Positions 2,344 through 41,328 of a stretch of 64,000 nucleotides of DNA are shown one piece after another. This stretch comes from Nemertoderma westbladi (lineage: Eukaryota; Animalia; Xenacoelomorpha), in the NCBI GenBank assembly GCA_032718475.1, contig JAUCBJ010008242.1, forward strand, positions 62,001 to 126,000, in the 5' to 3' direction. The notes under the pieces were generated by a model. That model was not told the DNA's origin and searched no databases. It saw only the letters and a list, made by a program, of their open reading frames with translations. Position 1 is the stretch's first letter. Each line of letters opens with the position of its first letter. Made by a program: the position numbers and the translations under genes.

Positions 2344-3307
2344 TTAATTAATTAATTGAGCTTGATTAGCTCCGCTAAAGTGGGACAGGGCAGGCATTGT
2401 AGTGCGTGAAAAAGTGATCCACAAGAGGCGCCGGAAGAAACTGCATACACATGTAGGTGATGGCTGATGGAACTTCTTGGCGCTGAGACATAGTTTGTGG
2501 TGGAACCCGTGAGCTGTCATGCGGGTAATTAAGCGCCTGATCTTTTGGCCTGAACGCTTCCATGTCGAGGTGTTAAAGGCGGGACCCAGAATGAATTGCC
2601 GCGCATCGAAACTTGCTTCTCGTTCAACACGGAAAGCTCGGTAGTTAGCTAACACATCGTTGTTGAAGACTGAGTTGTTTTTCGACACAATGTCTTCAAC
2701 AAGTGACTTTTCATCAAGAAGATGGAGAGCTAGAGTTGAAGAAGCCGATGTATGTAGCGATAACATGCGTTTGATATGTGCTGTCTTTATTTTGTCTAAA
2801 TCTTTTAGGTGTTGCAATTTGAGGTGATGGCCAATAGCATCAATTGCATATGTAGCCATTGGGGAAATTTTCATTCTAAATATTAGCAAACCAGTTTCCG
2901 TAGTCAGCAGTGGGAGATGATTTAGAGAACCAATCACAGCATAAGCGGATTTCATTTTTTCCTTGATGTGCAAGCTGAAACTCAGGGAAGGTTGCAAGGT
3001 AACACCCAGATACTCATATTTGTTTGATATGGTAACCAACCAGTTTGCCACCATAATAAAATTTATCACAGAGACATAGACGTCCATCTTTTCTAAACTT
3101 TACTATCTTGGTTTTAGTGAGATTGACATCCATCCCATTAGCGTTACACCAAATTTGAAGCACGTTGAGAACGCGTTGGATGTCTTCGCGGTTGTTTGAG
3201 TAAAACACCAGATCATCGGCGTAAAATATGAACTTGATGAAAGCGGCTGCCGTTCGAATTGCTTCAGCGAGGTCGGCAATGTAGAAGATGAAGCACGTTG
3301 GTGATAG
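2344..3307 (-). pseudogene. Non-LTR retrotransposon (LINE) ORF2, 3' part of RT and C-terminal region, frameshifted
   Basis: Minus strand reads LSPTCFIFYIADL...KFIFYADDLVFY (YADD), VNLTKTKIVKF and YEYLGVTL; continues the QGDSL motif at ~32365. Confidence 0.9.
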
Positions 3308-4482
3308 TGTAAAGGCTTTTGCGGAATTAGCTGGTTATTTTCCCCGCAAAGTACCCTGTAGGCGTTTTAGCGGACATAAAAAGCCGTTTCCTTACTGTAC
3401 AGGTGTTTTAGTGGACATAAAAAGCCATTTCTTCTGTATGTGTACTTTAGCGGACATAACTAGCGATTTTATGTCGCAATACGCCAAAATACTCTTGATA
3501 CAGTGTAGTTCAAGATGACGACATCTATCAGCTGATATGTCCACATGTAACTTTTTCTTTGTTCTTTGTTCGGTCGACCAATCAGAGCGATTTTCATTTA
3601 TTTGTACAGAAACCTCCGGGAAATCCCGCAATGCATTATGGTTTATGTTTACCTTTTTTCCTGATGCCAGAACACCGGCTGTGGAATTATTCTGTGTTTC
3701 AGACTTTAGCCAAAACATTAGAATGGCTTTGATCATAGAAACGTATAACTGTTATTCTGCCATACCTGGCATACCAGACTTGCCGTACCTCTCACCGCAT
3801 TATTTTACTGCTATTTACTGTTGGTTATTAATTGTATCAGTTGATGGAATATTGTTATATTTGGAGAATATCGATAAATAACCATAAAACCCCAATCTTC
3901 TTGATATACTGAAGGTGAGAGACCGGTTACATATAGCAATTGCGACTTACATTAAAGTGGTTTTGGAGTGAATTTAATGCTATTTCATAGGCCCTACAGG
4001 TGTCAGTTGCTGTTCTCTTTATATGTGACTAAAATTAGTGAAGGTCGGCAGATCGGTGTGCCGCATTGTGCAGTAGTGTGCATGACTGTGACAGATAACA
4101 AAGCATCTCCTAAAGAATGCGCTTTATACGTGAATCATTAGCCATCCCGTTGTGTTTAGTGTAAGTCATAACTCTGTTTACATACTTAGAGCGCCACGTC
4201 CTAAAGGAACTGTTGATATTTCCCGAAAGTAAATAATATTTGTCAGAGATTATATATTAACGATCAATCGAATAATACAGTAGGCCTACACCGCAATAAG
4301 GTCAGAGCTTCCGAATCCAGTCTCCCGGGTAAATCCAGCGGGTGAATGGTCGCGCATAGGCTGGCTTCGGCTAATGTAGTTTTATGTGTATCAAATACTC
4401 GTCATAGGCTAAAGTCGATTTATAACCTAGAAGACACCTAAATTTGGCAGGTTAAACTGCTAAAGGTCTAAAAGCACGAACA
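3308..4482 (+). repeat. 5' LTR of outer BEL element
   Basis: Starts TGTAAAGG, ends GAACA; about 9 substitutions versus 31188-32362. Confidence 0.97.
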
Positions 4483-6083
4483 ATAACAGTTATTTCTTCT
4501 GATTGCAGTGTAGGCAAGAAATACAGTTTACTATTGTTCTGGTAAGAATAATAACAGCTATTGCTTCTTTATTGCAAAGTAAGCAATAAAGGTAAAAGTA
4601 CCGGTCGACCGGTAACCAGTAGGCCTGACTGCCTAACCACCCGAACCGGTACTTACAGCAGTACAGGTACATCAGTATTATTTCGATTGTGATATATTGT
4701 ATATTGTAGGCTGTTAGGGGATTAGGGATTGATCACCCCTTATTCCTTTGTATGGTCTACTTATTTCTGTCAGTTTTATTTATTTGTAGGTTAATATTGA
4801 ACAGAAGGCGTGTAAGCCTGCTCAGATTGTACAGGTAATTTGTAGGCTGGAATGTTGTCTGACTGTTGTTAAGTCTGAAGAGATTGCAGTGTGTGTAGAG
4901 TGTATGTCCGATAAAGTACTAGTTAGGAACGTGGGGGCTTCCAGTGCTGTAAGGTAAATCCCCCCCTCCCCCCGAAAGAATAAGTCGTACTACTCGGTTA
5001 GAACGCATACTAACTAACCATTTCGGAGTCTGCATGTGCTGTGGTTTATTTAGGCTTGATAGTAGTCTGCCAGCGTTTGGTCTGTATTTTGTTTGTGTAG
5101 TCTGTACGGGTAGCGTAATATTTATTATTCAGAGTTTATGCGATTATTCGCAACATACATACCCCCAAGTTTATTCCTACAGTAATTGTGCTTGTTATAC
5201 ATACCGTTATAGTTAAATTAACCCCGGTACTACATCAGGGCTGTTTGGCGTAGGTAAAGACTGGTGATTTTATGCTCTAGTCACTCCGGCAGATACCGTG
5301 GTTCTTTTAGCTGTACAAGTATTTTTAACTGCTGGTTATTTGTTGTATAAGTACTTGTACCTAATTTAGGGTTTAGTGTACAGTGCTTTCCGAAAGTAAT
5401 TAGCGTGTAGGCAGTATATTTGTGTTGTAAAGTGGTTAATAGGCACGTTGGCTCTGGCAGGCCACGGTAATTAACTTCTAGGTAGGAACACTCCGTGAAA
5501 CATAACGTAGTACTTATAGCTCTACGGCTATAAGTCGTCAGACAGTGGTATTTTTCCTATGTGGACAACGCAGTATATTTACTACTGCTTTATTATTTTC
5601 AAATACCGTAGTATCTTGTCCGTTGTAATAACCAGAAATTCTAACCCTTGTTAGGCTGGTTTGTAGACTTCTTGTAAAATTACCCCTAAAAATTCGTACT
5701 TGTATTTTTTTGTGTTTATTTAGAGATTGTAATCTCACCCCGTATTGTACGTAATTTGTAGTAATAAGTAACTTAGGCAAATTAGAATTATTTGTTTTAG
5801 TGTCCAATACAATAAGTAGCACTTCACTGAGAGCGTACAGCTTCTGTGTAGTGACTCCTTCCCAGAAATAATAACATTTATTTCAAATATTGACAAAAAA
5901 CCCATTAAACGGGTATATATATTATAAATCAACTCAAACCGATTTATAAAATAGTAGGCCTGTCTTACAAAAATTAGGTCTTAATGTCAGTTGGACTACT
6001 GCTTAAATAACGGTAATCAAGTAAAGTAAAGTAAACAAGTAACCCCTAAAATTCAGAAATTCAATTATTCTAAAATAATTGAC

Positions 6084-9462: not shown

Positions 9463-10706
9463 CCCAAGTTCCGAACTAAGTTAAACATGTCAGGAATTAT
9501 GCAGGTTTGGAAATCTACAGTAATTGCAGATTACTATGTAGGTGCGTTGTCCACCCCCCAGGATGAACTAGGAGAACACAGTATAAGGTCAGTAAAAATG
9601 GTTGCGATAAAGAACTTCACTACCCGCCAAGTGGAACCTTATAACTGGGATGAGGACGATTTCACCCAGCAGCTTAAGATACCTAGATTCAACACAGACT
9701 ACCCTGGAGTGCAAATACTCATCGGCCAAAATGCGCATGAGGCGCTTGAGACATTGGAGAAACGGCCTGCTCAACCGCAACCACTACAAACCTATGCGGG
9801 AAGAACTAGGGTAGGTTGGTACTTTACTGGCCCTTCCCGTAGAACTCTCATGGAAAGGTTACCCAAAGAACGGGTCTACCAGGTAAGTGAATGGGAAGCG
9901 GAGAGCAGTGAGGTAGACGACACAACTGAGGGAACACCATACTCCTCAGATAATGACGATATCCACCAACTCTTCGACGAGGAGAATACCATCGACCTCC
10001 TTACGGAAAACGAAACTTGGCAAAACCAAGTGAACCTATGTCAACTCATTCGTCCATCAGGACCAGTCGACTATAACGACGAACTGAATGACGTGATAGA
10101 TCGCTACAACGCGAAGACTCGGGATGAACACGCCGTACGATTCTTTACTCAAGAGGCTGTAGAGCCCAATTCCTACGATAAGGCCCTATCGGTAGAAGAA
10201 GAAAGAGCCAAGCAGATACAGGAAACAACTACATGTTTTCTTAAAGATCAAGGTAGATATGAAATTGGTCTGCCATTTCGAAAGCGAGAACCTATATTTA
10301 TAAACAACCGACCCTTGGCGGAGAAAAGAATTGCGCAACTACATCGACGCCTTACGGCAAATGCTTCAGCTAAGGAAATGTACAAAACTCAGTTGAAGAA
10401 ATTTATTGACAAGGGATATGCCGAGCGAGTACCGGAAGAAACACCCATAACTGAGAGAACGTACTATCTAACACATCATTACGTTCCCAAACCCGGTAAA
10501 CCCAACGAAGTCCGGGTAGTATTTGACGGCTCCGCCCTCTACATGGGCCAATCCCTCAATTCCGAGTTGTTGCCAGGACCCAACTTACTCCAATCCTTGT
10601 TGGGAATACTCTTAAGATTACGAAAATATTCAATCGCTTTTGCCTCAGATATAGAAGGCATGTTCTTACAAGTCAAGGCGCTAGATAGGGATCGAGACAG
10701 CCTACA
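9463..10706 (+). pseudogene. pol: Outer BEL pol, first part (rest of PR and N-terminal RT), cut by the inner element
   Basis: Same frame as gag after TAA; ILIGQN, RTRVGWYFTGP, RVVFDGSA, SLNSELLPGPNLL, SDIEGMFLQV. Confidence 0.93.
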
Positions 10707-11243
10707 TGTGACGGGATCCAAGAGGGATCCCGGTTTATCCGGTTTTAGTTCACGCGTCCCCGCCGTGTATAAAGAGTGAATAAGTTCGTGCTGTTTGTCG
10801 TATATAATATGATATGCAGGTATAGATATAGATATAGATATATTGTCGTATACGGAAGGCGGGATACGGTAACTAAAGTCCCAGTCCTTCCCTAGCTAAA
10901 CTATTGTAACCTAATCTAGCACCGGTATTGCACTGAGATAACTGAATTGGTATTATTACTGCCAAGTGGCTATATTGCACGGTTGGCCTTGTTACTCTAC
11001 CTAATCGATGCCTTTCCCCCCTCTGATTGGTTGATACCCTTGTTGGCGCCCTTTGGAGTGTTCCCGTTCACTCCACCTATTCTCTCTGGGTTAGGGGTTT
11101 GGCCCCTGACCCTCATTGTGTGCTTCTCCTTCCCATTCTCATTGGGATGGCACGAGTTGGTTAATTACCCAATCTCGTGGCTCCCAATATTGCTTATCGG
11201 CTTATAACTTTATGGGGTGTTAGCGGGATTGAATAAGCTAACA
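10707..11243 (-). repeat. 3' LTR of inner BEL element (537 bp)
   Basis: Matches 24092-24619 except 2 substitutions and one 13-versus-4-bp replacement; adjacent to PPT. Confidence 0.97.
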
Positions 11244-12048
11244 CTCCCCCCCATGCTATCTTCCCGGTAAGAAGATAGCATCAACCAAAAAGTGCGCTAC
11301 AATCCCGCTGGATCCCGATCTAGTATCGGGTGTGGGGTGGAATTCTTTTCTCTCGGAGCCGGCTTTCCAGGCCGCCCCCTATGGGTATGATAACGCTACC
11401 CTGTGTGCCTGGCGTCTCATGTCGGGCCGATCGCGCTCACCTCTCACGCAACTTTTGTTTCCCCAACACTTCCGCCCTATCTCTTCTTCACTCTCATCCT
11501 AACTCTCTCATACATTCGGACCTCCTCGTCCCTTACTCAGTCTCTTATTCTCCCCCCCCCCACACTAGAATTGCGTCCGCACTCTCTCTGCACTCCGCAC
11601 TATTACTCCGTTCCTCAACCCTACTCTGACTACCTCATCCCTTCTGACGAATCTCCCCTCCCCTCTTGTGCCGTCGCACTCAAGAAGTGTGAAATTGTCT
11701 GGTGTCTCGTCCATAGTGCCATAGTCAGTTATCCCCCAGTCCCAGTAGTTAATTGAGAAAGGTTGTATGACTATAGTACTTACTCCCAGCGTATATTCGT
11801 AGATTACTAATTACTACATACGTACATACAAATTGCACTTATATGATTATTTGCATTAATTAAATCTGTACTTAATAGTTCGTACGTCCCACGCGGCGCC
11901 TTCCAGGCGCACCACGTCCCAGTCTCAGTCTCTATCCCTCGACTCTGGGAACCTATCTGTTCCTCTGGGGATAGTTCCCCCTGGCGTCCTCTTCCCTGGG
12001 CCGTTTCTTGGTTATCACCGTTCCTCTGGCATCATCCGCTTTCTGCTT

Positions 12049-14482
12049 TCAGACCTTCGCTGCCACTTCCTTGCTGATCCCGGTCGTTGGCTCCTTGGGC
12101 GCTGGTGTTATTAGTGCCCGATATCGCTTCGCCGGTGGCCCCTCAGAGTGGCCCGGTTGCCTCCCTCTGGTGGCGTCCCATAGGATCATTTTCATTGCCT
12201 TTGGTATGTGCTCTGCCAAGAAATCCCTAAACTCCCTTCGGTTCTCTGGCGTCCACCTGTCCAAATACCTTTGCGTGTTCATCACTCCGGCGTACGACGC
12301 CGCCGTTGCTACCTCTTGGTAGGTAAACGGTAGCCTCCGCTTTATGATTTCCATGTGAGTCTCCTGATTGATAAGGAAGAAACCCCACTTGAACTCCTGG
12401 GCCTTCATGCGCTGGCGCGTCATGGCCCCGACGTCGGCCCACTCCTCGAATCTTGTGAACTTCTCCTCGTCGTTCATCCAGTCGCACTCGCGTCCGTAGT
12501 GTCCCCGAAAGTGGCACTTTGGACATCGGTTATGCAACCGTGGACACGCCCCCATCCTGTGGCTTGGTTCTCTGCAGTAGAGACAAAAGGTTCCCTGTTG
12601 GAACCGGTATAGGCAGCTGCTTTCCCGATGGGTCTGTCTCCCACAGTAGTCGCAGCCGAGTACCAATGTCTCCCGTCCCACCTTGTCCTTCGTCCCAAGC
12701 GATCTCCGCGGTCTGTGGAGTCGCTGGTAGGCGAACTTCTCTACGTTGGTCTCTCTATCTACGTCGATCTCTCCGCCCCTCTCGGGCATCGTCTCCCCGA
12801 ATACTATCCGTGGTGCCGTCCCCGGTTGCTCGCCCAACCTGATGGTGCTCCCCGCGAAATCCATCGCCGGGTCCTCGTGCACCCAGGTCCGCTTGCCGGA
12901 TCTGTTCCAGAAGGCCCTCGCCCCACTGGCCGTCACGACCCTTCCGCCAACCCAGTCCGTGTCCGAGTGGCCTATCCTCTCGATGGGCGGCATCTCTCCG
13001 AACTCGTCGTCGTCGTCCTCCTCTTCTGGTAGTGTCTCCAATCCCGGTATCCCGATGGATCCACTATGTCCCTTCCCGCCTTGGCTCTCACCCGTAGCTC
13101 TCCATCCTTCTAGCTCCCTTAACTTCCTTGGCGGTTGGTCGCCCTCGGCGCCTGCTGGTATAGGCATCATTTGCAACCCCGACGTCGACTGTTTCGGCGA
13201 TCCCACCGTCCATCCCAATTCTCGCCCTAGAGACTCCCCCGAACTCCCTGATGAAGTCCAATGAAGTTCGTCTAGGCCTGCCTGTTCCTCGAAGCCGTAA
13301 CTCTGTGTCCTGGCATCCTCTTCCCTCTCCTCTGCTTCTATCCTCTCCCGTCTAGCGACTTCTTCCAGTCGCTTTGCTTCTCGTCTATCCGTCTCTAGCT
13401 GCTCCCATCTCTGATACGGTGTATCTGTCTCCCCGTCTACCAGATGTCGGCTGTTGTAGTACACCGACTCGCCCTTCAGCCCCGGGTGGTCTACCAGACC
13501 GTCAAAGGCCGTCTTAAAGGCTCTCCTGTAGCTTAGGGGTGATCCCGATAACAGAAATGCCCCTGGTTCCCTCTCGATAACCACGGTCATGAATAAGTTA
13601 AGCAAACTTATCATCATCCAGTCTTCCTGCAGGATATATCGCTTCTGATATACCTTTATCGCTCCCCTGCGGAACTGATATACCTCCTGCTTTCCCGGTC
13701 TCGCTCCCCACTCTAGCGAGTTCGCTAGTTCTGCTCCGTATTCTTCCCTAAACTTCCCCCAGTCCATCGGTTTGTGGCATACGAGCCCCAATAATTGGCC
13801 CATCGCCACCGCCCCGCATTGGCCTGTGTTTTCGACTACCCCCAACCCATCCGGTGCCGTCATAGCCATAAAGACTTTCTGCATATCCAGGAGGTTGGTG
13901 GCGTCCGGACCGATGATCCTCTCCGCGTCCTCGCGAATCGCCGATCCCACTTTCGTCGTCGACTTCTCCCTTACTAAGACTTGTACCGCTTTTGGTAACT
14001 GGTTTAATTTCGGTCCGTCCTTCTTCCCATACGTCCCTAGGTCGAATAAGAAGATGTCCCCATTTGGCGCGGCCAAATGTAGGAGTATGGTCCTGGCCGA
14101 CCCCGCCGTTCCTCGTCTCGAACCCGCCTTGTCTTCCACGGTTCCCTCGTCGTCTAGGATCATATATCCTCCTCTGTTGACGGACTCTATGAATCTCTTC
14201 CAGTCCTTCCTCGGTGATTCCCTCGGGTACTTCGGAATCCCGAACTTCGCCTCGTCCCCTTTCACCACGTAGTGGAAGTGTTGGAAGATCGCGTTGTCTA
14301 GGTGCTGTTCGCTGTTCGTGCATCTCTCTGAAGTGATCCTGCAGCGCTCGCGCCGCGTGACCCCTTTCCAACCTCTCGTAGTATTCTCTCGTCTTCTCTT
14401 CCGGATGTCTCTCAGTGAAATCCACCAGTATCTCCTTTCCTCCTGACTCCGCTTTTCTCTTTCTGATCAACTTACTCGCCAT
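12049..14482 (-). CDS. Accessory protein of inner BEL element: DEDD(y)-type 3'-5' exonuclease (WRN/EXD/RNase D-like), coiled coil and 3 CCHC zinc knuckles; ~808 aa after removing a 7-bp duplication
   Basis: ILDDEG (ExoI), TILLHLA, IFLFDL, LPKAVQVLVREKSTTKVGSAIREDAERI (ExoII), NLLDMQ, W...YQKRYILQED (ExoIII-like); CDYCGRQTHRESSC, CLYCREPSHRMGAC, CPKCHFRGHYGREC; GCTGTTC x2 at 14304-14317 explains the frameshift. Confidence 0.82.
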
Positions 14483-14964
14483 TCCGAACGTTCACTCGCT
14501 CACCTGCAAGGTGGTGCCTTACCAAGGCGCAATACAGATGAGTGATGTATCTAAGATGTTCTGTACGGTTCGATAATGGCCTATTTCCTACTTAACTGCG
14601 CCTTTTAACCTAAATTATTCCTAATTAATTTTGAAGCTAGTAAATGAGCGTAATTTACAATTTCTGTCCGTTACTTTTATTATGTTCTAGAATAACTTCC
14701 CTTGTGTTGCCACTATTTTACAACTTTCAGCTCTATTCTGTTTATTTATCTATTTAACTTGATTCTACTGTCCTACTACTTACTACTGCCTATGGATTAT
14801 TCTATTCTCTAATCCACATTCTGGCCTACTCTGTGGGTCTATGCAGTACAGCAGTATGCGTCGTGTGGCCACACGACTCACCCAGCTGTACTCATATGCC
14901 CCCCTCTCGCTACTAACGCTACTAACTGCTAACTAATATCTATATCTATATCCCCTTTTACCTC

Positions 14965-15400
14965 TTACTCTCTCTCTTCTAACTAACAGTACTACGTACC
15001 CTCTAACTCTAACTCTTCTAACTAACGGTACTTACGTACCCTCTAACTCTCTAACTAACTAGCGGTACTTACGTACCCTCTAACTCTCTAACTAACTATC
15101 GGTACTACGTACCCTCTAACTCTCTAACTAACTATCGGTACTACGTACCCTCTGACTCTCTAACTAACTATCGGTACTACGTACCCTCTAACTCTCTAAC
15201 TAACGGTACTTACGTACCCTCTAACTCTCTAACTAACTATCGGTACTACGTACCTCCTAACTAACTAACTAACTAACGGTACTTACGTACCCTCTAACTA
15301 ACTCTCTAACTGGCGGTACTACGTACCTCCTAACTAACTAACTAACTAGGTACTACGTACCTTCTAACCAACTCTCTGTCTACTAACTGCGTACCTACCA
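14965..15400. repeat. Minisatellite (~33-37-bp units, ~11 copies) between integrase and the accessory ORF
   Basis: Unit ctaactctctaactaactatcggtactacgtaccct with variable (ctaa)n. Confidence 0.92.
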
Positions 15401-15513
15401 TGTACTATTTTTTTTATTTTATTTTATTATTTTGTTTGTGGGAAGGGCGGCTCGCCCTCAATCCCACCCCCCTCAGTCCAAAACTTGGACGACTAAACTT
15501 TTCTGTAACTCTA

Positions 15514-18500
15514 CTAAGGTGCCCCTTCTAATAGACAGCATTTGCCTACAGCTCTCCTGTAGGTTTTTCTGTCCTTCGCACCTATCTTTCCACCTATCCG
15601 CACTTCTACCGATCGGACTCTTCCGTCCTCGTCGGAGTAGGTGCCTACAACTCTCGCCAACCGCCATTGGTTGTTGATGATAGTATCATCCGTAACGATT
15701 ACGAGATCTCCCTCTCTTAACTCCCTGTTTGACTTCCTCCACTTGCTTCGTTTATGGAGTGTGGGTAGGTATTCCTCGACCCACCTCCTCCAATACTCTG
15801 CGCTTATTGCCTTTGCGACTTTCCAACTTTGGCGGGAGTGTATGTCATCTGGGTCTACACCCCGCATATCGATGGTCGCTGGCCTTTCCATCAGGAAATG
15901 GCTAGGCGTCAGCACGTCTAATGACTCAGGGTCATCATTCTCCGGATATAGCAGTCTGCTATTAATGATCCCCTCGCACTTCGCAAGTACTGTCCGTAAG
16001 ACGTCCTCAGTGACCATGTGGGTGTTCATCAGCTTCGTCATTAGACGCTTTGAACTGCCCACCAGTCTCTCGACGCATCCTAGTGCATGTGGTGCATACG
16101 GCATCCTTCTCTCCCACTTTACTTGTCGTCGTCTCATGGCTGCCCTGACTTCTTCTCCCTCCAAGATGTCCAAGGCCTCTGCCATCTCACTCTCTGCGCC
16201 CACAAAGTTGGTGCCGTTGTCACTGTATATCACTGCGATCGTCCCACCTTTGCGGTCCCTAAACCTTTCTAAGGCATTAATGAATGCTGATGCGGTTGCA
16301 TCTTGGGCGAGTTCTATCCCTACCGCCCGTGTGTTGTTGCATACGAAGATAATGCCGTAGCGTTTCTCCGTGTGTTGCATCACTTTGATCTTTATCGGCC
16401 CGAACATGTCCACACTGCAATGCGTAAATGGCGGGTCGTGCTGTCTTACCCTACTCGCCGGTAGTGGCGCCATCTCCTGTACGGCTCGCTCCTTCTTCGC
16501 TCGTCGGCAGGTCTGGCACTGCCCCACTACCGCTTTTACCTTCTTCCTCAGTTGTTTGACCCAATAGGTCCTCCTTATCTCTGTGAGGGTTCGGTTGGTG
16601 CCCCCATGTAATATCGATTTGTGGGAGTCCCATATAATCTGGTGGACTATTGGCGATCCTGTAGGAATGATGATGGGTTTCGGTGGTACGACTATGCTGT
16701 TGTTGTATCCCACCCTAGAATTCATTACTAGAATCCCGTCGTCATTGAGTTGTGGCGACAGCGTAATCAGCTCGCTGTCCCGTCGGAGGTGCTGTTGGTT
16801 ACCGACGCGTTCCACCTCGTCGCCGTAGTTCTTCCGTTGTTCATAGCGGATCACTGCCTTGGCCGCTCCTTCCAGATCTATGGTTGTCCTGATCTTCTTG
16901 TCCTTGCCAACTCCCGCAAGGAAATTCCCGAAGGCTCTCCAGTACGCCACTAGTTTCTTGGTCTTATACCAACTAGAACTGTAGCTGAGGAGTTTATCCG
17001 TCGGGTTATCGCACAGTTCCCGTCCTGGTTGCACGTCCCTAATCTCCCTCACAATCTGGGAGTATATCTCTTCTCCCTCTGAATCTCCCTCTTCTCCCTC
17101 TGACACTACTTCTGAGCCCGGGTCCACCTTTCTCATCGGCGGCCAGGCCTCCTTATCGCTCAGAAATTGTGGCCCATGTTGCCACAATACTTCCTTCTTC
17201 AAGAAAGTGTGGCGTACCACGCCCCTTGACAACAAGTCCGCTGGGTTATCGTCTGTTGGGCAGTAGTGCCACCTTTCCAATTCTGTACTCGCCCTTATTT
17301 CGTCCACTCTATTCGCGACGAATATCGGGTATCTCGTCCTTTCGTTGTGTAGCCAACCAAGCACTACCATGGAGTCCGTCCAGTAGTGTGTCTCCACTAT
17401 GTTGGGAATAGTATCCACTAGGTAGGCTGTGGCTCTTACTCCTAGTCTCGCGGCTGTCAATTCTAACTTAGGAACTGATGCTGAATCTGGTGGCGTTGAC
17501 TTTGCTTTACTAAAGGCTAGTCTTGGCTTATGAGCCCCCTCTCGTTGTACTAAGTAGAGTGCCGCTCCGTACGCTTCCAACGACGCGTCGGAGAACATGT
17601 GTAGGTCCAGATTCGTCATGTTCCCATCCGGGAAATACACCCGTGGCATGTTGTATGTTCCCATCTTCTCCAAGTCTCCTGTCCACTTGCTCCACTGCTT
17701 CTTGATTTCCTATGGTACCTCTACGTCCCATTCATCTTTCAATTTGTATACTCTCTTGAGTATCTGTTTCCCCGTGACTAATAATGGGGATGCTAGGCCT
17801 AGGGGATCGTATATCCTTGCTATATACGATACATAACCCCTCTTCATGTGGATGTCTGCGCCCTCCTGGCTCAGCTGATACTTCAGTTCGTCTGTCTCTC
17901 TATCCCACACGATTCCCAATGCCTTCTGCTGGGATTCCGTTCTCTTAATTGCCATGTCCTGCCCTTTGGCTGTTGTGGGATTATCCATGGTCGATTCTGG
18001 TTTCCTGTCCTCTATGGCTTTGATAAATTCTTCCGAACTGGATTGGAATTTGGTCAGGTTAATGCCGGATCCTTTTAGGATGTCGCGAACCTCGCGCCCT
18101 GTATCCAGTATCTCCTTAACCGTATTTCCAGACTCCATTCCATCGTCTACGTAGAAGCCGCATCGAATCATATCGACGGCCCTACTGCTGTATCTATCTT
18201 CCTTCCCCTTTACTGTGTCTCTCACTGCCATAGTCGTCGTAAATGAAGACGACTTGGCTCCCATGTTCTGTACTACCATCTTATATGCCGGTATTATCGA
18301 CGGTTCTTCCTCGCCGTTATACCATAAGAAGCGCTGACTGTCGCTATCTTCCTCCGTTACACGGACTTGGTTGAACATGCCTTCTATGTCACACGTGAAG
18401 GCGTGTTTCCCATTTCTAAATCTAAGTAACACCTCTATGCCCGAATTGTATATGTTTGGGCCTTCTAACAGGTAGTCGTTTAAGCACTTTCCGTCGGTCT

Positions 18501-21500
18501 TTGCCGATGCGTCGACTACCATCCTTAGTTTACCTTTCTTTGGGTCTAAAGCCACGTGCAGTGGCAGGTAATATGTCCTATCCGTGTTCGGCTCGTCGAC
18601 CGGTAACTCCACGGCCCATCCTTTCTCGACGTACTTCTTAATTGTTCTGTGGATGTACTCATTCTTCTCGGGGCTCCATTTTAGTGTTTGTTTCAGTTTG
18701 CGGAGTCTCGTGAGTACCATCCCCCTATTGTCGGGCAGCGGTATCTTCGGTAGTTTCCATACCATTGCTATAGTATACCGTCCCTCATTGCATGTCATTG
18801 ATTCCTCCACGCTTTGTAGAGCCTGCTTGTCTTCTACTGAGGTCCCGACTCCGGTTTCTTTCAGTCCCTCGAAATCCTGTCTGAGCAGTCTTTTAAGCTG
18901 CTCCTCTGCTCCCTCGTCACCCATTTCCTGCATTGTTCCCGCGAACATGCATCCTGATGTCTCCGACATCCTAAATGGTATCTTACTCTTGATTGGACCA
19001 CTCAGCGTCCACCCGAATGGTGTTAATATTGCCACCGGGTCACTCTGCTTGTCTTCGCCGAAGACCGTTTGCATTCTTTCGTGGGCCGTTGGGCAGTCCA
19101 TGCCTACTATGATGGACACCTTCCTAACGTCCACGTCTGGGATAGAGAAGTCAATGTCGTCCAGGAATTTATACTGCTCGACCTCGATGTTGGTTGGTCG
19201 CCTGGCATTAATATTAATTGACTCTATCACTTGGATGGGGTCGATGGTTGCCCCATAGTCGCATCCTGGTGCTATTGCTGCAATTGCGCACCGTCCTGTT
19301 CTCATCTCCAGGATCTCATCTTTGCTAGAGATGGTTGTTACCGCCATCCTGCTTGGCCTCGTTCTCAATCCTATCTCCTCGGCCACCCATTCCTCGACTT
19401 ATGTGAAGGCAGCTCCACTATCAACCAGCATTAGTGTTGTTACTGATCGATTGCCTTCCCCGATCACTCGCACTGGTACTACTCCAAGTAACACTGTTCC
19501 CCTCTTCTTCGCCCCTACTGTGCTGGTCGCCATCGTTTGGCCTCTCCTTTGACCAAATTTTATTGGCTTCTCCTTGCACTCCCTTGCTCTATGTCCACTC
19601 ATTACACATCGCGAGCAGATTTTATTGCTGAACGCATAATCTATCTGATCCTGCCTAGGTAGCGCCTGCCAGTACCTGCAGTTCATGGTTTGATGAAGCG
19701 CATTTGCGTGTAGCTGGCATTTGCTCTTTGGGTCGTAGCCCTCTTTATACAGTGCATTGCGTATCGCAGTTGCGTTTGTACCAAAGTCCCTACTATTCTT
19801 ATTGTTTGGATTTAGCCTACTGGGCGTACTGGGGTTATGTTTATTCGTGTTGTTATTGTTTCCCTGTCCGCTCCATGGTGTTGTCTTTTCTTCGGCTAGC
19901 TGTGGACTTGCAGTCCCCTGCGTCGCTGCATATGGCAATGATTACCTGAGTCTCGGTAATGCGTTTGATGTGTTGTGCTCTGGTTTCGGTCTATGGTAGT
20001 CTGTCTTCGGTCCCTTTCCCAGGCTATCTTCGCTATAGACTGGGTCAGTTATTAGTTCAGCCTCGTAGTTTAAGAAGTTTGACATTTCTTCTAAACCCGG
20101 TTCCGCACCCTTCTTATCTCGAGTGGAGAAGGCGATTTTTCTCCACTTGTTGCGCAGCCAGCTTGGTAGTGCCTGCGCTATCGTGGTGATGTTATTGGAC
20201 GCATTGAGCTCGTATGGCGCGTCTAGCGTCTTCAGCACGATCAGCGCCTTTTCGACTTTGTTAGCGAACGTCTTAATGCTAACGGGATTATCCTGTAGGC
20301 CACCCGATGTTATGCCTCTCAGCGTCTGCCTGATGATCTTGGCCGGGTGCCCGTATTCCCTATCCAGTGCCCGCCATGCTGTCGTGAAGCCGCCCTCTAT
20401 TCCTTGATATTGCCTCACGATATCGTATGCTGGGCCTCCCGTGTACACTTGTAGATACTTTAGGCACTCCGCCTGCGTCAAGTTTTTTGTTAGTATTTCG
20501 TTACTATACATACGCCGAAACTGTAGATATTCTTCCGGCCTACTCCCATCGAATTTGAATGGTTCCACGGGTGGTAACTCGATCCTCGTTTTCAACGCAT
20601 CGATCAACGTGGCCATCCCCATCGCCTGTGCTTCCAATGGATTCGATGGATGCTGTATAGTTTCTCCTGTCTGGTGCGTTCCGTCTGTCCTATTTCTTGA
20701 CTTTCTCTGACTTGGGTATGTCATCGGGGGTAGCGGCCCCCTCCATATTTCTGTGTCACACGACCTATTCTCATCCAAGGGTCTCGTTGTTCTTGCTCCT
20801 ATCGGGGTATATTGTTGATATTGTGATGGGGGAATGTCACCCTGTCCCCCCCCCCACCGGTATGTTTGGTACTGGGGTTGATGTTAATATGTTGGGGCCC
20901 ATGCACCTATCCGCAATAATTCCCCCCTCCCCTGGGTATATGTTATGTCCCTGCATGCTGTAGTCATACTGCTGTGCTGGTACCGGTATAGGCCTATCAG
21001 CTTCTGGCCTACCCGCCGGTATGTATTCCGCGACTTCCGGGTTTAATCCCGTTGTCCACGCTATCCTATCGCCTACATTGCCTCTCTCAGTATGGCCTAT
21101 GGTATGTGCAGTAAGGCCTACAGTATGTCCTACAGTCTGCATGTGTTGTTCGGGATCGAAGTTTATTCTTCTCGAATAATCCTCCCCGCGGCTACCGTAT
21201 TCTCGATCGATAGGTGTATTCCGTCGGAAAGTTTCTCTTCGACCCCCCTCTCTACTGTTCTCATCTTCGTACCGGTACATCGCGTACCCCTCTCTCGCCG
21301 CGTAGTGCGCCTCGCCGGGTCGCATCTCTCCGGGGCGACGGCAATCTCCCGGAGTCCGACCCCACTGACTCTCTGTTCTCATCTCGACTACCGACGGCTC
21401 GCTATCCGTCCTCGCTCTTCTATCGTTCGCGGCGATACTTCTACTACTGTCTTCTCTTCTTCTCCTTTCAGTGGAGTATTCCCGCTCGTGAGATCTCTCG

Positions 21501-24022
21501 TCGACCTCCCGGTTAAACCCCACTGTTCTTCTTCCCTCTTCTGATCGGGCTCGACGCTTCGTCCGCCCTCTTACGAAGTCAACCTGTCTCTCTCTACTCG
21601 GTCGCACGCTGCTGGGGATACTCGCAATCCCCCTATTACTTTCCGTCGCTGGTTGTTGCGCTTTACCTATTTTGGCCCTCGCATTATCCGCTGACGGCTG
21701 TGGGACACTCTCTGCCCCCCCCTCTCGCCGCTAACTCGCTGTTGTGGGGCCCCTGTAGCCCCCCCCCCACTCGCCACATCTAATTTCACTATCTCTCACT
21801 ACGTTACTATATCCCTCTTTAGTCGACACATCAACCCTATCGCGGTCGGGTCTATTCACCCCCGCCTCTCTCTCTGCTATTGCGTGGCCTACCAGGCCCT
21901 CTGCTCCCTGCCTACCGACTATGCGGCCTACCAGGCCCTCGCTGGGTCCATCCAACCCAGCCACTCCCTGCCTACCAACTACGTGGCCTACCAGGCCCTC
22001 GCTGGGTCCATCCAACCCAGCCACTCCCTGCCTACCAACTACGTGGCCTACCAGGCCCTCGCCGGGTCTACCTAACCCAGCCACTCCCTGCCTACCAACT
22101 ACGTGGCCTACCAGGCCCTCGCCGGGTCTACCTAACCCAGCCACTCCCTGCCTACCAACTACGTGGCCTACCTGGGCCCCATCTGTCTGGCCATACACGC
22201 CCGACGTGTTTACATTAATAGCACCCGTATTGGGAGCGGAATTAACTTGTTCGTTCGAAATAAAATCATTTGAATTATCTTGTAAATTCGGGCTTGGCTC
22301 ATTAATTAAATTATTTGAATTATTATTATTTTGATTATTTGGATTATTTTGCGTAGCTACATTAATGTTAGGATTATTTTCTACATTAATATTAAGATTG
22401 TTCTGATTTAAATTTAAATTACTACCACTAGGCAAAGTATTTCCTGCAATAAAGGTTTGATTAGAATTATCCCATACGGTACTATTAATATTAACCACGT
22501 CTGCTGTACCATTATCATTATTACCCCCCCCCCCCCGCCCGTACGGTCACACCAGTTTTGTTGGGTCTGTCGTGCGGTCCCTGTAAGTGGGGTATTAATA
22601 AATGTATCCACGGCCCCTGGCTCCTCTAAAATACTCGAGCCTGTCTCGCTCTCAGACGCCCCCGCCCGCACCAGTTGCAGCTCGTGCGCGCGTCTAACCC
22701 TATGTTCCCCAAGCTCACTTTGGCGTCTCTTTAATTCCTCGTGGTCTCGCTCGGCTCCTGCCATTCTCCTCTCACACTCCCGCGTGTCCCGCTCAGCCAA
22801 CTCTACTACTTTCCTAGCACTCTCCCTTCGCCTCGCTTCACGCTCCTTACGTTCACTTTCCTTTCTCGCCTCATGCTCCTTGCGTTCCGCCTCGCGCCCT
22901 TTGCGTTCCCTTTCCTCTCTCGCCTCACGTTCCCTACACTCCTTTTCCTCTATTTCCTCACACTCCCTAAGGCCTCTCAAAGCCCGTTCGGCCCTCTCTC
23001 CGGTTTCTCTAATCAATGCCGCTTCCCTCTCTAGCCGCATTCTTCCCTCCTCTAGCCGTTTATCCATTTCCCTTTGACCATGCTCTATCAGCTCGAGACA
23101 GTACGCGGCACCTGCCTCTCTCACCCGTCTTTCTTTCGCGGAGGATGTAGCAGACTTATCGGTTACGACGGACTCCCTCCGCCTTCCCGATCTACTAGCT
23201 TTCCCCCTCCTCCCGGAACTCCCTCCGACCGACGAGGCCGAATCCTCGGGGTTAACCTCGGATTCGCCCCCTTCAGGTCTGTTCCAACCCATTAATTTTA
23301 TACCCCGGGCATCGATTAAATATGGCCCTATGTACACTACACTACAGTTCCTCGGCAACCTTTCTCGCTCTCTCCTCGGCCAATTCTCTCTGCCCGAAAC
23401 GCATTAGATAGTATAAATGTCTGTCCGACTTACCTAGTTCTGACTTCAGTTTTACCTCGTCTATCGTTTTCCCCTTTCTGGCCTCCTCTAGTAGTCTCCG
23501 GGTCGCGTTGTAGGCCCGTCGAAGTCGCTCAGAAACCCCAACGTCCTCGTCGCCGACCTCTCGTCCGTCTCTCCGGGTTCGACGTCGTACCGGCGGCCCC
23601 ACCGTCGCCGTTTCGGCGGGCCATCCGTCGCCCACGGCCTGTGGCTGGCCGGCGACATCGGTATCGACACCTCCGTCGTCTCTCCGGGTCCTTCCTCGTA
23701 CCGTCGGCCCTTCCGTCGTCGTCTTGGTGGGCCGTTCGTCGCTCTCGGCCTGTGGCTGGCCAGCGACGCCGGTGCGTCGACCCTCGTCCCGTGTCGACTC
23801 GTCTCCTTCTCCCTCGAGCCCGCTCTCTCTATCCTCCGACTCGACTCCCCCTCCTCTCGACTCGGCTTCTGACTCCAGATGGTCTCCCTCGTCTTGAACT
23901 TCCGGGTCGCCCGTTATCGATGGCTCCGGTGTCGTGGGCCTATACCGCCTGGTCGCGGCCTCGCGGATCGTTTGTTCTTTGTCCGGGGTCCGCGTCGGTG
24001 TTATTTCTCCCGACTGACTCAT
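15514..24022 (-). pseudogene. gag-pol: Inner BEL gag-pol polyprotein, disrupted by frameshifts (several at G-runs) and in-frame stops at 19942, 19399 and 17710
   Basis: Collinear ORFs 23342-24022, 22414-23358, 21731-22498, 20837-21607, 19942-20778 (FDGSRPEEYLQF), 19399-19938 (CQLH..H..C, CSRCVMSGHRAREC, LVDSGA), 17710-19386 (RT), 15514-17673 (RH+IN). Confidence 0.95.
21880..22175 (-). repeat. 60-bp coding tandem repeat in inner gag N-terminus (GLVGHVVGRQGVAGLGRPGE, ~4.5 copies)
   Basis: Lines 21961-22170 repeat with period 60. Confidence 0.95.
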
Positions 24023-24091
24023 CTTTCTTTATCTCTAAATTGGTCGCTGATGGTTACAGAGTTTATCTAGGGCGGCAGCTGATTTAGTTAC

Positions 24092-24619
24092 TGTGACGGG
24101 ATCCAAGAGGGATCCCGGTTTATCCGGTTTTAGTTCACGCGTCCCCGCCGTGTATAAAGAGTGAATAAGTTCGTGCTGTTTGTCGTATATAATATGATAT
24201 GCAGGTATAGATATAGATATAGATATATTGTCGTATACGGAAGGCGGGATACGGTAACTAAAGTCCCGGTCCTTCCCTAGCTAAACTATTGTAACCTAAT
24301 CTAGCACCGGTATTGCACTGAGATAACTGAATTGGTATTATTACTGCCAAGTGGCTATATTGCACGGTTGGCCTTGTTACTAGGTGCCTTTCCCCCCTCT
24401 GATTGGTTGATACCCTTGTTGGCGCCCTTTGGAGTGTTCCCGTTCACTCCACCTATTCTCTCTGGGTTAGGGGTTTGGCCCCTGACCCTCATTGTGTGCT
24501 TCTCCTTCCCATTCTCATTGGGATGGCACGAGTTGGTTAATTACCCAATCTCGTGGCTCCCAATATTGCTTATCGGCTTATAACTTTATGGGGTGTTAGC
24601 AGGATTGAATAAGCTAACA
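24092..24619 (-). repeat. 5' LTR of inner BEL element (528 bp)
   Basis: Direct copy of 10707-11243; gag ATG lies 70 bp downstream at 24022. Confidence 0.97.
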
Positions 24620-27600
24620 CTACGATTTCTGTGGTGGCCTGAAGGAGACCTCAACCAGAAACCGGTGGAGTATTGGATAACCATCCAGGCTTTTGGGATC
24701 ATCTCAAGCCCTTCAAATGCCTGCTCAGTGGTGTGCACCACTGCTGATGACAACCGGGACGCCTTCTCTAAAGAGGTTATAGACAACATCAAACAGGATA
24801 TATATATGGACGACAATTTAAAGTCCCTCCCATCGGTGGAAGAAGCCATTGATGTCGCCAAAGGAACGGCAGAGTGCTTGAAAAGAGGTGGATTTCGATT
24901 AACTAAATTCACCAGCAACTCCCGTGAGTTTCTGGAATCGATCCCGGTAGAAGATCGAGGAGTTAAAGATCTAGACCTAATCAAGGACGATCTTCCAGAA
25001 ACCAAGACGCTTGGTTTGAAGTGGGATACAGAGAGAGATATCCTGTTTTTCCAGCTAAAACAGCAAGATAATCCAGTTCGGACTAAACGGATTTGTTTAA
25101 GTATTCTGAGCACTTATTTCGACCCATTGGGATTTATTAGCCCAGTTATATTGATTGCTCGGAGTTTAGTACAACAAATGTGGCTTGAAAACCACTCATG
25201 GGACGATCCACTTAAGGGAGAACTATTAAAGAAGTGGATGAAATGGGAAGATTCTCTACCATCCATCGAGAACTTTATAATTTCCCGTTCATATTTTGGT
25301 CATGTTCTCCCTACGTATTCCTATCAACTCCATGTGTTTGGAGACGCCAGCGATATGGGAATAGGTATAGTAGCCTACCTGAGAGTTGAAACTCCGGATG
25401 GAATCAAAGTCGCCTTGGTTACCTCTAAGGCCTCCAAGTAACATAAAGGACCCCCTTGGAAATAAGCTGCAAAGCTTTAGGGGTAATCCTATATGTTATG
25501 TTGGACAATACCTTCATACCGGTACATTGTTTGGTGTATTTGTTATTGTTTTTACATAATGTATAAATAAATCTATCTATAAATCTATCTATCTATCTAA
25601 GGCATTGATAAACAACAAGTTGAAAGTTCCTCGAGCGGAGTTAAAAGCTGCTCTATACGCTACAGCCATCGGCCGGAATGTAACGGAAGAGATAGACTAT
25701 CCACTGGAGAAAACTGTCTATTGGACCGATGCTTTGCTCGTGTTGGAGTATATCACCAATGAAGTCTGTCAGTTCAGCGTCTTCGTTACCAACAGAGTCG
25801 CCATTATACTTAGTCGTACGAAGATAGATCAATGGAGACATTGCCCTGGGACGATTAATCCAGCCGACATCGCCTCCAGGGGAGCAACTCCGCAAGAACT
25901 GATAGATACTCCAGACTGGTTAGGTGGACCCGACTTCCTAAGCAAAGAAGAGGATGAATGGCCTCCTCATCTTACCACGGCTGAGATTAGACAAGCCAAG
26001 GGAGCGGAGAAAGTCAAACCTAAAACCCGGGCGAGTAAATCGAAGTTATTTAAACCTGTGATAGATCTGTCTGTACTACACACTTCCGGAAACGACGCTT
26101 TGGATCCACAATCCCCCGCCACAAATAAGTCTGTTGTGGAAATCAGAGAGAGAGATTGGAAATCTGGAACGCCAGACGTCTCGCAAGGACTCTCACCCCT
26201 CCTGCAGAGAGCGATACATCACTATAGTTCCTGGAATCGGCTCTGTAAGGCCGTTACATATTTAAAGCGATGTTTTCATCATCACTACTACAGGACGAAG
26301 ACCACTAGTGATACCGCTCCACTGACATCTGCGCAGGTCCATGTTGTTAAAGATCTTCCCAAATACAAGATATCCGACAGGTTTCTGAAGGAGAAGATCA
26401 GTTACCAGGAGCATGAAGAAACCAATAAGCAGATACTGAGACTCCTGCAATGCTATGAGGATTCCGATAAGTATTTCCTGTTGTTGAGAAATCCACAGAT
26501 GCGCTTAAGGGATCGTTTCTCTAGCACAATGATAGATGGGTTAATACGTGTTGGAGGAAGACTAACTAATGCTCCATTATCCTTTGACACTAAGTTTCCC
26601 ATACTCATTAGAAATCTTGAAATACAAATCAAGATGATTGTAGATGTTCACAGTAAGCTTTATCATGCTGGTAGAGAACGAGTTCTTAGCAAAATTCGAA
26701 CTCGCTATTATTTTTATAAACCCCGTAGAGCTCTGAACTAAGTTCTTAGGAACTGCATACCCTGTAGGAAAGCATTCAGTAGGCCTTTAACACAGCGAGA
26801 GGCAGAATTACCTAGGGAACGAGTAAGCTTCTATGAACCACCCTTTACTAATACCAGTGTGGATTTATTTGGCCCTATTGAAGTATATCGTGCTAGGACT
26901 ATAGTCAAGAGATGGTGTGTCATCTTTGTCTGTATGACTTGTAGAGCTATCCATCTCGATATGGTGAACGATTTATCTACCAATAGCTTCATATTGAGCT
27001 TACGCCGACAGATCGCTCGCTTTGGAACTAGTAACACGATGAGATCTGATAAGGGAACGAACTTCATTGGTGCCAACAATGAAATCAAGGCTTACGTCAA
27101 AGATTGGAACCAAAGACAGGCGGACGATCAGCTAAGGGTAACAGCGTCTAGCTGGACCTTCAACGCCGCCGACGCCCCTTGGTGGGGAGGAAGTTGGGAG
27201 AGATTAATCAGGAGCGTGAAGACCGCATTTCACTTTATAGTGCCTTGCCGCGCGTATCTCACCGACGAACTTTTGCGGACGTTAATGGAGGAAATCGCCG
27301 CCTATCTCAATGAGAGACCGCTTATGCCAGTCTCATCGAGTCCCGATTCCCTGGAAGCGCTAACACCCACGCACTTCCTACTGAAGAAACCTGTAGCCAT
27401 GCTCCCACGATCGGAAATCACGGACGGAGACGAATACTGCTGGCAAACTTGGCAACTTATGCAGTTGTTATCCCGTCGTTTCGCTGACCATTTCGAAAAA
27501 CATTATCTGCCTACGCTACAACTTCGAACTAAGTGGTTTGCGCAGCAAGAAAACGTCAGCGCCGGAGACATGGTCCTTATTGTGGATTCAGATCTTCCAC

Positions 27601-41252: not shown

Positions 41253-41312
41253 CTTTGGCCTATTAATGTTATTTATCGTCTATGGTTTTACCGCACGTCC
41301 CATTTAGACGAT

Positions 41313-41328
41313 CCTACACACTGCGCCA
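41313..41328 (-). promoter_or_regulatory. Primer-binding site of the Gypsy element (resembles a tRNA-Ser 3' end)
   Basis: TGGCGCAGTGTGTAGG immediately after the 5' LTR. Confidence 0.8.

Follow-up and report, generated by a model that had tools for sequence, protein, structure and literature searches.

The closest described systems are the DEDDy-type ORF3s of the bdelloid rotifer LTR retrotransposons Juno1/2 and Vesta2/5, a gene type that these elements have in common with Athena/Terminons, in a paper that names the Juno, Vesta, TelKA and Mag clades (PMC5408684). In the available part of that paper, neither selection nor activity is reported for these proteins, exonuclease activity not having been demonstrated. 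Transposon-borne DEDD nucleases are also known from Dada (DEDDy, inserted in the transposase; PMC3706591) and KolobokD (DEDDh; PMC9587614), which are DNA transposons, and the accessible text of both sources proposes that the nucleases act on DNA ends. Among cellular enzymes, the mitochondrial RNase D of Trypanosoma brucei, TbRND, joins a DEDD domain to four CCHC knuckles through a 28-residue linker (PMC7797062; PDB 7C42/7C45/7C4C); according to the part of that paper at hand, removing the knuckle domain left far weaker RNA binding and cutting, and overexpression depleted guide RNAs. The precedent for capture named in an earlier sequence-only reading of this DNA holds for rotifers (PMC5408684, available part), while no nematode case was found in a literature search. 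That search also found no report of a DEDDy ORF3, or of an exonuclease-plus-knuckle architecture, in BEL/Pao elements.

The window (the whole 64-kb stretch of DNA analyzed) contains a complete BEL/Pao element on the minus strand, which encloses the gene studied here, ORF3. At 13.9 kb it is longer than the 4.2 to 10 kb given in the ICTV profile of Belpaoviridae (PMC8742986). Its parts are as follows.

10702..10706, plus strand: left copy of the 5-bp target-site duplication; right copy at 24620-24624, with one mismatch
24092..24619, minus strand: 5' LTR of 528 bp, TG...CA (sequence comparison)
24083..24091, minus strand: primer-binding position directly 3' of the 5' LTR, with no TGG start
19402..24028, minus strand: gag region, with several broken frames in this copy; DUF1759 and a weak zf-CCHC
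15514..19398, minus strand: pol region with RVT_1, Peptidase_A17, Integrase_H2C2, rve and DUF5641; a stop inside at 17710-17712
14972..15368, no strand assigned: 36-bp tandem repeat in 11 copies, in the spacer between pol and ORF3 (repeat search)
11244..11252, minus strand: polypurine tract
10707..11243, minus strand: 3' LTR of 537 bp, with 4 mismatches and 9 gap columns relative to the 5' LTR

The assignment to BEL/Pao comes from Pfam domains, which follow one another on the minus strand as DUF1759 (7.8e-12), RVT_1, Peptidase_A17 (2.3e-22), Integrase_H2C2, rve and DUF5641 (8.7e-25). Gag precedes RT, RNase H and integrase, in the order known from Metaviridae and with domains of the Pao type, and the paired LTRs, target-site duplication and polypurine tract are likewise those of BEL/Pao (Belpaoviridae) elements, so that the element type first proposed was borne out by the LTR pair, the duplication and the domain order. 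We take the Juno, Vesta, TelKA and Mag clades to be Ty3/gypsy-type, whereas the host element of this ORF3 is BEL/Pao. The element sits within the RT region of a second, outer BEL/Pao element, and the joints of the empty site (10701-24620) were present in all four sequencing runs examined. That ORF3 belongs to an element which integrated as one piece is shown by the paired LTRs, the target duplication and the joints of the empty site.

ORF3 (14482-12049, minus strand) is on the same strand as pol and lies between the integrase stop (15514) and the 3' LTR (11243-10707), as had been claimed, which is the slot of the env-like third gene of Belpaoviridae (PMC8742986). The features within and next to it are the following.

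14503..14507, minus strand: possible splice acceptor, pyrimidine-AG/G, some 20 nt upstream of the ATG of ORF3 (sequence only)
14310..14482, minus strand: N-terminal piece from the ATG at 14482; a basic, KRKRK-like run lies close to its beginning (sequence)
14298..14310, minus strand: short deletion that breaks the frame in this copy and is absent from the sister contigs mapped
13561..14202, minus strand: probable DEDD-type (RNase D/EXD-like) 3'-5' exonuclease domain (weak, agreeing tests)
14154 and 14148, minus strand, within this domain: D and E of ExoI; 13929, D of ExoII
13710-13696, minus strand, within this domain: W-x-x-R-P; 13638, 13626 and 13623, Y, E and D of an ExoIII-like motif
13296..13416, minus strand: E/R-rich stretch, 56% charged, with a coiled coil predicted from composition only
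12666..13296, minus strand: linker of about 210 residues, rich in G/S/P and charge, probably disordered (composition)
12654-12613, 12585-12544 and 12525-12484, minus strand: three CX2CX4HX4C zinc knuckles (exact pattern matches)
12049..12471, minus strand: C-terminal region, stop at 12051-12049, with a basic PPAKRYR near the end (no family match)

Neither the signal peptide nor the C-terminal TM anchor of an env fusion glycoprotein was found in ORF3 by hydropathy: the best 19-residue window reached 1.3, and the N-terminal piece was hydrophilic (best 12-residue window, 0.09). ORF3 was therefore rejected as an env gene, as the sequence-only reading had it, which sets it apart from the third gene of Belpaoviridae, whose profile lists only gag, pol and env (PMC8742986). 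Along similar lines, the ORF3s of Juno and Vesta are described in the available part of the rotifer paper as non-env genes 3' of pol; they are homologous to RNase D-like 3'-5' exonucleases, have an altered catalytic motif and lack a TM segment (PMC5408684). The ATG at 14482 and the domain-coding part of ORF3 are in different frames in this copy. Sister-contig depth dropped to zero at 14303-14308 in runs X1-X3, with loose ends on either side, and one X6 contig crossed with gaps. This copy, unlike the sister contigs, has lost sequence near 14300-14310, and for that reason the 808 residues previously given for the protein are not the length of the family. The AG of the candidate splice acceptor was also present in sister contig ends. 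The ORF3 protein may be translated separately from Gag-Pol, on an RNA that is spliced or that starts internally; a protein produced in this way could act in trans, outside the particle.

Variation among sister contigs was predominantly silent. Below the break (13390-14298), 24 of the 31 listed variants were synonymous, against 34% expected under a transitions-only null (P ~1e-6), and the other two frames of the same stretch gave 8/31 and 0/31. Above the break (14310-14482), the synonymous fraction was 7 of 9 listed variants (P 0.009, against the same 34%), and all three listed for the knuckle and C-terminal part were synonymous. Given this excess, ORF3 is under purifying selection across sister copies, and the possibility raised beforehand, that sisters might lack the ORF or carry it as a neutral sequence, did not hold. 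By contrast, the rotifer env and GDSL ORF3s that were sequenced showed neutral variation, according to the available part of PMC5408684. With its many sister copies, ORF3 is best read as an accessory gene that selection maintains in a multi-copy BEL/Pao family. It is extremely improbable that it is a passenger fragment of a host gene, or a host gene hit by the element, of no use to the element. Although no long contig among those listed joins ORF3 to pol in another copy, ORF3 is intronless and flanked by two LTRs with a target duplication, more than 1,000 variant contigs per deep run cover it with mostly silent variants (depth not being read as copy number), and the selection signal rejects, and largely refutes, a neutral passenger.

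All the motifs on which the exonuclease claim was originally based were found in ORF3 in the same order. When the domain was aligned to 31 bacterial RNase D/NrnC domains, with which its motifs are collinear over about 190 residues, its D17, E19, D92, K144 and W165 fell on all five invariant columns. The two residues of the ExoI D-x-E are thus on invariant columns, within a strand (residues 13-22) of a model guided by a DEDD alignment, and all the alignment methods used placed K84 and D92 of ExoII on the conserved K and D. ExoIII, already called atypical, reads Y-I-L-Q-E-D, a Y-x3-E-D preceded by about 12 inserted residues, instead of the Y-x3-D of DEDDy enzymes; in the rotifer ORF3s the altered motif is DEED (PMC5408684, available part). 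D194 was on the ExoIII catalytic column in one alignment and not in another, and the guided model had a pLDDT of <50 at 190-196. When the domain was added to the 31-sequence alignment, 4/4 catalytic columns were matched, an outcome seen in 5/768 shuffles and 1/106 natural windows, and its profile score of 22.4 was reached by 4/278 shuffles and 0/53 natural windows. The count of conserved columns gave no separation (7 matched by the domain; at least 7 in 190/958 shuffles), and hmmsearch was given no weight because the domain ranked 1/503 at only 2.6 bits with a first 20-sequence profile and 13/1108 with a 38-sequence profile.

Pfam, NCBIfam, PHROGs and PDB sequences gave no match to the N-terminal domain. 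The PF01612 cut-off was not reached, and no Pfam family appeared for the domain at E values up to 10, so the ORF3 protein is likened to the DEDDy family in its working and is not filed in it. A phmmer search against 1.84 billion representatives returned no real relative, its single match, a 14-fold repeat protein over 20 residues, being dismissed as an artefact. Word-based protein searches gave nothing for the in-frame ORF, the domain (against longer proteins) or the knuckle and C-terminal region, and scans of metagenome, viral and prokaryote contigs, plasmids and phages, as well as an exact look-up, gave no match. Weak matches appeared in 24 of 301 proteobacterial genomes; the four examined were all non-exonucleases. 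Atlas ranked a cluster of WRN-like exonucleases first (0.81; 38% of its members carry PF01612), and the 10 best family matches all agreed on the exonuclease family; we treat this as a lead only, since the score is <0.9 and one in three shuffled proteins attains 0.8.

Structure prediction had been proposed earlier as a check. The unguided single-sequence model had a pLDDT of 31.8 and a fold search with a meaningless best Z of 3.1, whereas the guided model, a single, partly circular one without a control, had values of 82 to 89 in 7 of its first 11 ten-residue blocks and of <60 in most blocks beyond residue 110, ExoIII included. With Foldseek, this guided model matched best to TbRND (E 4.6e-6, 19% identity) and EXD2, two proteins that the guiding alignment did not contain. 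VIA-align placed it on TbRND with a Z of 10.3 (rmsd, 3.9; 186 aligned), tied with diDNase and NrnC, and Z values against DEDD structures reached 10.8, in a model steered by a DEDD alignment. Several weak, agreeing and partly circular tests thus make a DEDD (RNase D/EXD-like) fold quite probable for the N-terminal domain: the motifs of the original exonuclease claim stand, the fold is only probable, and a direct family match is missing. Metazoan EXD2, Nibbler/Mut-7, Exd1, Egalitarian and WRN exo, fold matches of the guided model at only 12 to 21% identity, likely form a pool of host donors from which no single one can be named.

A different globular domain, in a selected, knuckle-bearing RNA-binding protein with a chance match to the motifs, is quite unlikely. 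The absence of a library match, the Atlas score, the marginal or negative profile tests and the origin of the fold matches in a guided model would all fit such a protein; on the other side, the family was named from sequence before any test and given independently by Atlas, the motifs are collinear, and the top Foldseek matches belong to subfamilies outside the guiding alignment.

The knuckles fit their pattern exactly. Three exact matches occurred in 0/100,000 shuffles and one in 7/100,000, upholding the triple-knuckle claim, as do the charged stretch and the G/S/P-rich linker for the predicted coiled coil and disorder, both judged by composition. Pfam zf-CCHC models all remained below cut-off on the ORF3 knuckles, Atlas gave a zf-CCHC lead for the region (0.77), and comparison with the PDB gave weak sequence matches to nucleocapsid, Lin28 and TbRND knuckles (E 0.18-0.31 for TbRND). 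In the rotifer paper the term CCHC does not occur, and only a Maelstrom-like Cys-His-Cys motif is mentioned in Vesta2/5 (PMC5408684). The arrangement is that of TbRND, a DEDD exonuclease domain (probable here) and then tandem CCHC knuckles, with no HRDC, so the fusion is less unusual than the sequence-only reading supposed (PMC7797062, available part). ORF3 differs in its number of knuckles (three), in the roughly 300 residues that separate them from the N-terminal domain and in an additional region at the C-terminus, and the likeness is best taken as one of architecture and fold match, not as demonstrated common descent.

Our preferred explanation, held tentatively, is that ORF3 is a selected accessory gene whose product combines three knuckles with a likely RNase D/EXD-type exonuclease and trims or degrades short single-stranded RNAs, host guides being the likely target. 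By analogy with TbRND, the knuckles would grip the body of the RNA and boost a nuclease that is weak by itself, which would then work from the 3' ends; that the substrate is host silencing guides (piRNA/siRNA) is the least certain step. Mature piRNAs usually carry a 3' 2'-O-methyl group, a hindrance to such nucleases, which counts against a piRNA target, and the roughly 300 residues between nuclease and knuckles, compared with 28 in TbRND, count against the explanation as a whole. It is rather unlikely that the BEL/Pao family has built a TbRND-like enzyme of its own, recruited independently of the rotifer cases and used in trans against piRNA/siRNA guides.

The long linker and extra C-terminal region would also suit a scaffold, that is, a DEDD-fold protein with a weak or dead nuclease, serving like EXD1, Egalitarian or Maelstrom as an RNA-binding adaptor or decoy that shields or transports the RNA of the element. 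The atypical ExoIII after its insertion and the presence of Egalitarian and Exd1 among the fold matches point the same way, and EXD1 and Maelstrom are described as inactive DEDD derivatives that keep RNA binding (PMC5408684, available part). We consider this adaptor rather unlikely, given acidic residues at 4/4 catalytic positions and an E at the ExoIII position whose codon changes silently, at 13624, across most of the sister depth.

An active exonuclease might instead serve the replication of the element, by trimming the 3' tail of an RNA primer, RNA remnants or cDNA ends. According to the ICTV profile, the primer-binding site of Belpaoviridae spans 18 nt and pairs with a host tRNA (PMC8742986). 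In this element the site is not of the TGG type, the first 9 nt of the primer position are complementary to 24262-24254 within the element's own LTR (29/5000 LTR shuffles reach 9 nt), and a self-derived primer might need 3' trimming. The knuckles resemble those of nucleocapsids, and similar roles have been proposed for the rotifer ORF3s (PMC5408684), Dada (PMC3706591) and KolobokD (PMC9587614), in the parts of these sources available. The outer BEL/Pao element, however, has the same LTR-pairing primer position (11 nt), yet tblastn found no ORF3 relative elsewhere in the 64-kb window; self-priming thus seems not to need the enzyme, as judged from one decayed copy. As a separate ORF need not be packaged either, a role in replication appears unlikely.

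The case bears on the question of whether animal retrotransposons make proteins that actively suppress piRNA silencing. The BEL/Pao ORF3 adds a second LTR superfamily, and clear purifying selection, to the DEDD ORF3 cases, its nuclease label being likely. Should the domain not be a nuclease, the ORF3 product would still be an orphan accessory protein that selection maintains in a high-copy element. Its domain layout has a cellular analogue of known mechanism in TbRND, which makes a direct biochemical test possible of whether the knuckles license 3' trimming of short RNAs and whether a 2'-O-methyl end blocks it. If the BEL/Pao family does direct a TbRND-like enzyme against guides, this would be a transposon-encoded enzymatic counter-defence against small-RNA silencing.

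ORF3, the extra gene between pol and the 3' LTR (14482-12049, minus strand), lies in a 13.9-kb LTR retrotransposon (24619-10707, minus strand) identified as BEL/Pao, a metazoan group (PMC8742986), because its Pfam domains were found in the order DUF1759, RVT_1, Peptidase_A17, Integrase_H2C2, rve, and DUF5641. This group, together with eukaryotic genes nearby, points to an animal host. The two LTRs differ by 4 mismatches and 9 gap columns, a purine tract is found just ahead of the 3' LTR, and a 5-bp target duplication with one mismatch flanks the element. It was inserted in the RT region of another BEL/Pao element on the plus strand, and the empty site (10701 joined to 24620) was seen in contigs of four of four sequencing runs. 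Since stops and frame changes interrupt its gag-pol, the window copy is dead; at two of these stops (near 19400 and 17712), the aligned contig depth carries another letter throughout. Upstream of the Gag core there is a long, charged, repeat-bearing region (23342-24028 and 22414-23403, minus strand; tandem units of 111 and 60 bp), and this region together with ORF3 accounts for the size of the element, compared with 4.2 to 10 kb in the ICTV profile of Belpaoviridae.

Features of the window (LTRs of the ORF3-bearing element from self-comparison of the window; sister copies are its other genomic copies)
24619-24092, minus strand: 5' LTR of the ORF3-bearing element, 528 bp, TG...CA
11243-10707, minus strand: 3' LTR of the same element, 537 bp, TG...CA
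14972-15368: 36-bp tandem repeat in the pol-ORF3 spacer, 11 copies, variable among sister copies
3307-32362, plus strand: outer BEL/Pao element, LTRs of 1176 bp (99.2% identical), split in its RT region by the ORF3-bearing element
2344-3334 and 32695-34689, minus strand: non-LTR retrotransposon RT-like fragments flanking the outer element, judged by eye
36296-41532, minus strand: Gypsy-type element bounded by 205-bp LTRs of 99% identity; its pol frame is long and open, and gag and a primer site of TGG type are present
43868-44653, plus strand: intronless gene with a single RRM and CCHC
about 47600-54000: 70-bp satellite array, ~6 kb, with strong strand skew
58926-61450, minus strand: DUS3L-type gene in which an internal repeat, ~100 residues long, lies between CCCH fingers and Dus domain

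We take the RRM and CCHC gene to resemble lark/RBM4, though with one RRM. In the outer BEL/Pao element, the 3.3-kb stretch from integrase to 3' LTR contains short frames only (the longest of 124 aa) and is possibly a decayed third gene.

On the minus strand, the integrase stop (15514) is followed by a 1-kb spacer with the 36-bp repeat, which may act as a promoter or enhancer, and then by the ORF3 ATG (14482), which is out of frame with the long open frame that ends at the stop at 12049. In contigs from three studies, depth was zero at 14303-14308 in three runs, with loose ends on either side, and one contig crossed this break, with gaps. The window copy is missing a short stretch near this point that sister copies retain, which explains the mismatch between the ATG and the long frame; therefore, the 808 residues proposed in the sequence-only reading are not the family length. 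Our ORF3 analyses used unaltered in-frame pieces only. These confirmed the three predicted CX2CX4HX4C knuckles as exact matches (none of 100,000 shuffles yielded three) and also include a charged stretch and a linker of ~210 residues. No 19-residue hydropathy window exceeded 1.3, and ORF3 is not env, as the same reading had held.

In each deep run, between 1,276 and 2,529 contigs covered the first 1.1 kb of ORF3. Among the best 40 of 174 variant places by support (contigs with <80% likeness left out, sites sharing ancestry), 24 of the 31 listed below the break were synonymous, against 34% expected if every change is a transition (binomial P of about 1e-6), with 8 and 0 of 31 in the other two frames. 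Above the break, the ATG frame gave 7/9 synonymous variants (P of 0.009) and the other frames gave 0/9 and 2/9, while in the knuckle and C-terminal part all three listed places were synonymous. Two of the runs, X1 and X3, represent one sample, and the best run is possibly the source of the window. The ORF is present in sister copies with mostly synonymous variants, and the family maintains its reading frame on either side of the break. ORF3 is real and selected; that it is a passenger seems extremely improbable. No joint between ORF3 and pol in another copy was found among the long contigs listed, so their linkage is shown for the window copy only.

The N-terminal domain (13561-14202, minus strand) was examined as a candidate DEDD exonuclease. 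Direct searches were blank: there was no match in Pfam, NCBIfam, PHROGs, or PDB sequences, no relative in a word-indexed protein set, and a single match among 1.84 billion representatives, rejected as a repeat artefact. An unguided structure model was uninformative (pLDDT of 31.8). Indirect evidence, from the Atlas, the motif columns, and a guided fold, agreed in direction. The Atlas top, a lead only, was a WRN-like exonuclease cluster (0.81, recognition 3178) with PF01612 on 38% of members and 10 of 10 best family matches in agreement. Against 38 bacterial PF01612 domains, those of 40 that had readable frames, the profile score was 22.4 over 73 columns, attained by 4/278 shuffles and 0/53 natural windows. 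In an alignment with 31 of these domains, of RNase D and NrnC types (PolA excluded), D17, E19, D92, K144, and W165 (numbered within the domain) fell on all five invariant columns, and LEWGARP lay opposite the W-x-x-R-P-L of the family. Added to this alignment, kept fixed, the domain matched four of four catalytic columns, as did 5/768 shuffles and 1/106 natural windows, a test picked after a broader conserved-column count had failed to separate it (7 of 17 columns, with 190/958 shuffles reaching at least 7). The hmmsearch rank was 1/503 with a small profile and 13/1108 with a larger one. The model guided by the bacterial alignment, partly circular and without control, had a mean pLDDT of 64 and a pTM of 0.63, with confidence high over most of residues 1 to 110 and low beyond. 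Its best Foldseek matches, TbRND (E of 4.6e-6) and EXD2, ranked above the guiding families themselves, RNase D and NrnC, and VIA-align with TbRND (Z of 10.3, rmsd of 3.9, 186 aligned) was tied with diDNase and NrnC. From these sequence and model comparisons, a DEDD fold appears likely; a domain of another kind, with the blank searches on its side, is quite unlikely.

The ExoI and ExoII motifs are found at the expected positions. ExoIII is atypical, as had been read from the sequence (E at the YxxxD position, D next): an insertion of ~12 residues precedes the motif, which has the sequence Y-I-L-Q-E-D, and the role of fourth ligand may thus fall to E193 or to D194. The codon of the E at this position shows silent variation at 13624 in most of the aligned depth. 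The ORF3 product is probably a DEDD exonuclease; set beside this ExoIII and the ExoI and ExoII in place, a dead-enzyme RNA adaptor seems somewhat unlikely.

Within the available portions of the published reports, DEDDy ORF3s are described from the rotifer LTR elements Juno and Vesta and from Terminons (PMC5408684, PMC6431247, PMC5718144, PMC6338049), and DEDD nucleases from the DNA transposons Dada (PMC3706591) and KolobokD (PMC9587614). The ICTV profile gives gag, pol, and env only for Belpaoviridae (PMC8742986), the main text of a BEL/Pao survey has 0 occurrences of "exonuclease" (PMC3118150), and a literature search aimed at transposon-borne exonucleases listed no BEL/Pao or knuckle-fused case, most subscription journals and Repbase reports, in which an ORF of this sort might be annotated, being outside its scope. 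ORF3 is of a known kind, and what sets it apart is BEL/Pao as the host superfamily, the triple-knuckle layout, and the extreme divergence.

ORF3 might act in priming of the element itself or at its cDNA ends. A TGG-type primer site is absent, and the first 9 nt past the 5' LTR (24083-24091) are complementary to a stretch inside that LTR (24254-24262, minus strand), a pairing reached in 29/5000 shuffles. The outer BEL/Pao element, also without a TGG-type site, has an 11-nt LTR pairing (4483-4493 with 3745-3755, plus strand; 10/5000 shuffles), and the Gypsy element has a TGG primer start and no such pairing. Next to the 5' LTR of both BEL/Pao elements, these pairings form a self-priming-like signature. 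In the outer element no ORF3 relative was detectable, so the ORF3 enzyme seems dispensable for self-priming, and we regard a role in priming or cDNA ends as unlikely.

Among architectures of known mechanism, TbRND comes closest, with a DEDD domain and four CCHC knuckles compared with three in ORF3; in the available part of the report, TbRND without knuckles had strongly reduced RNA binding and cleavage, and its overexpression depleted guide RNAs (PMC7797062). By analogy, the role of the ORF3 knuckles would be to grip single-stranded RNA so that its 3' end reaches the nuclease. A putative splice acceptor lies 20 nt upstream of the ORF3 ATG, and both ends of ORF3 have basic stretches similar to nuclear localisation signals. 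Given its own ATG, the possible splice acceptor, and the basic ends, the protein would be made separately from Gag-Pol and be free for action in trans. The reading that we favour, tentatively, is that ORF3 would trim host small-RNA guides. More doubtfully, this BEL/Pao family may use a self-built TbRND-like enzyme in trans against host piRNA/siRNA guides, as a means of counter-silencing.
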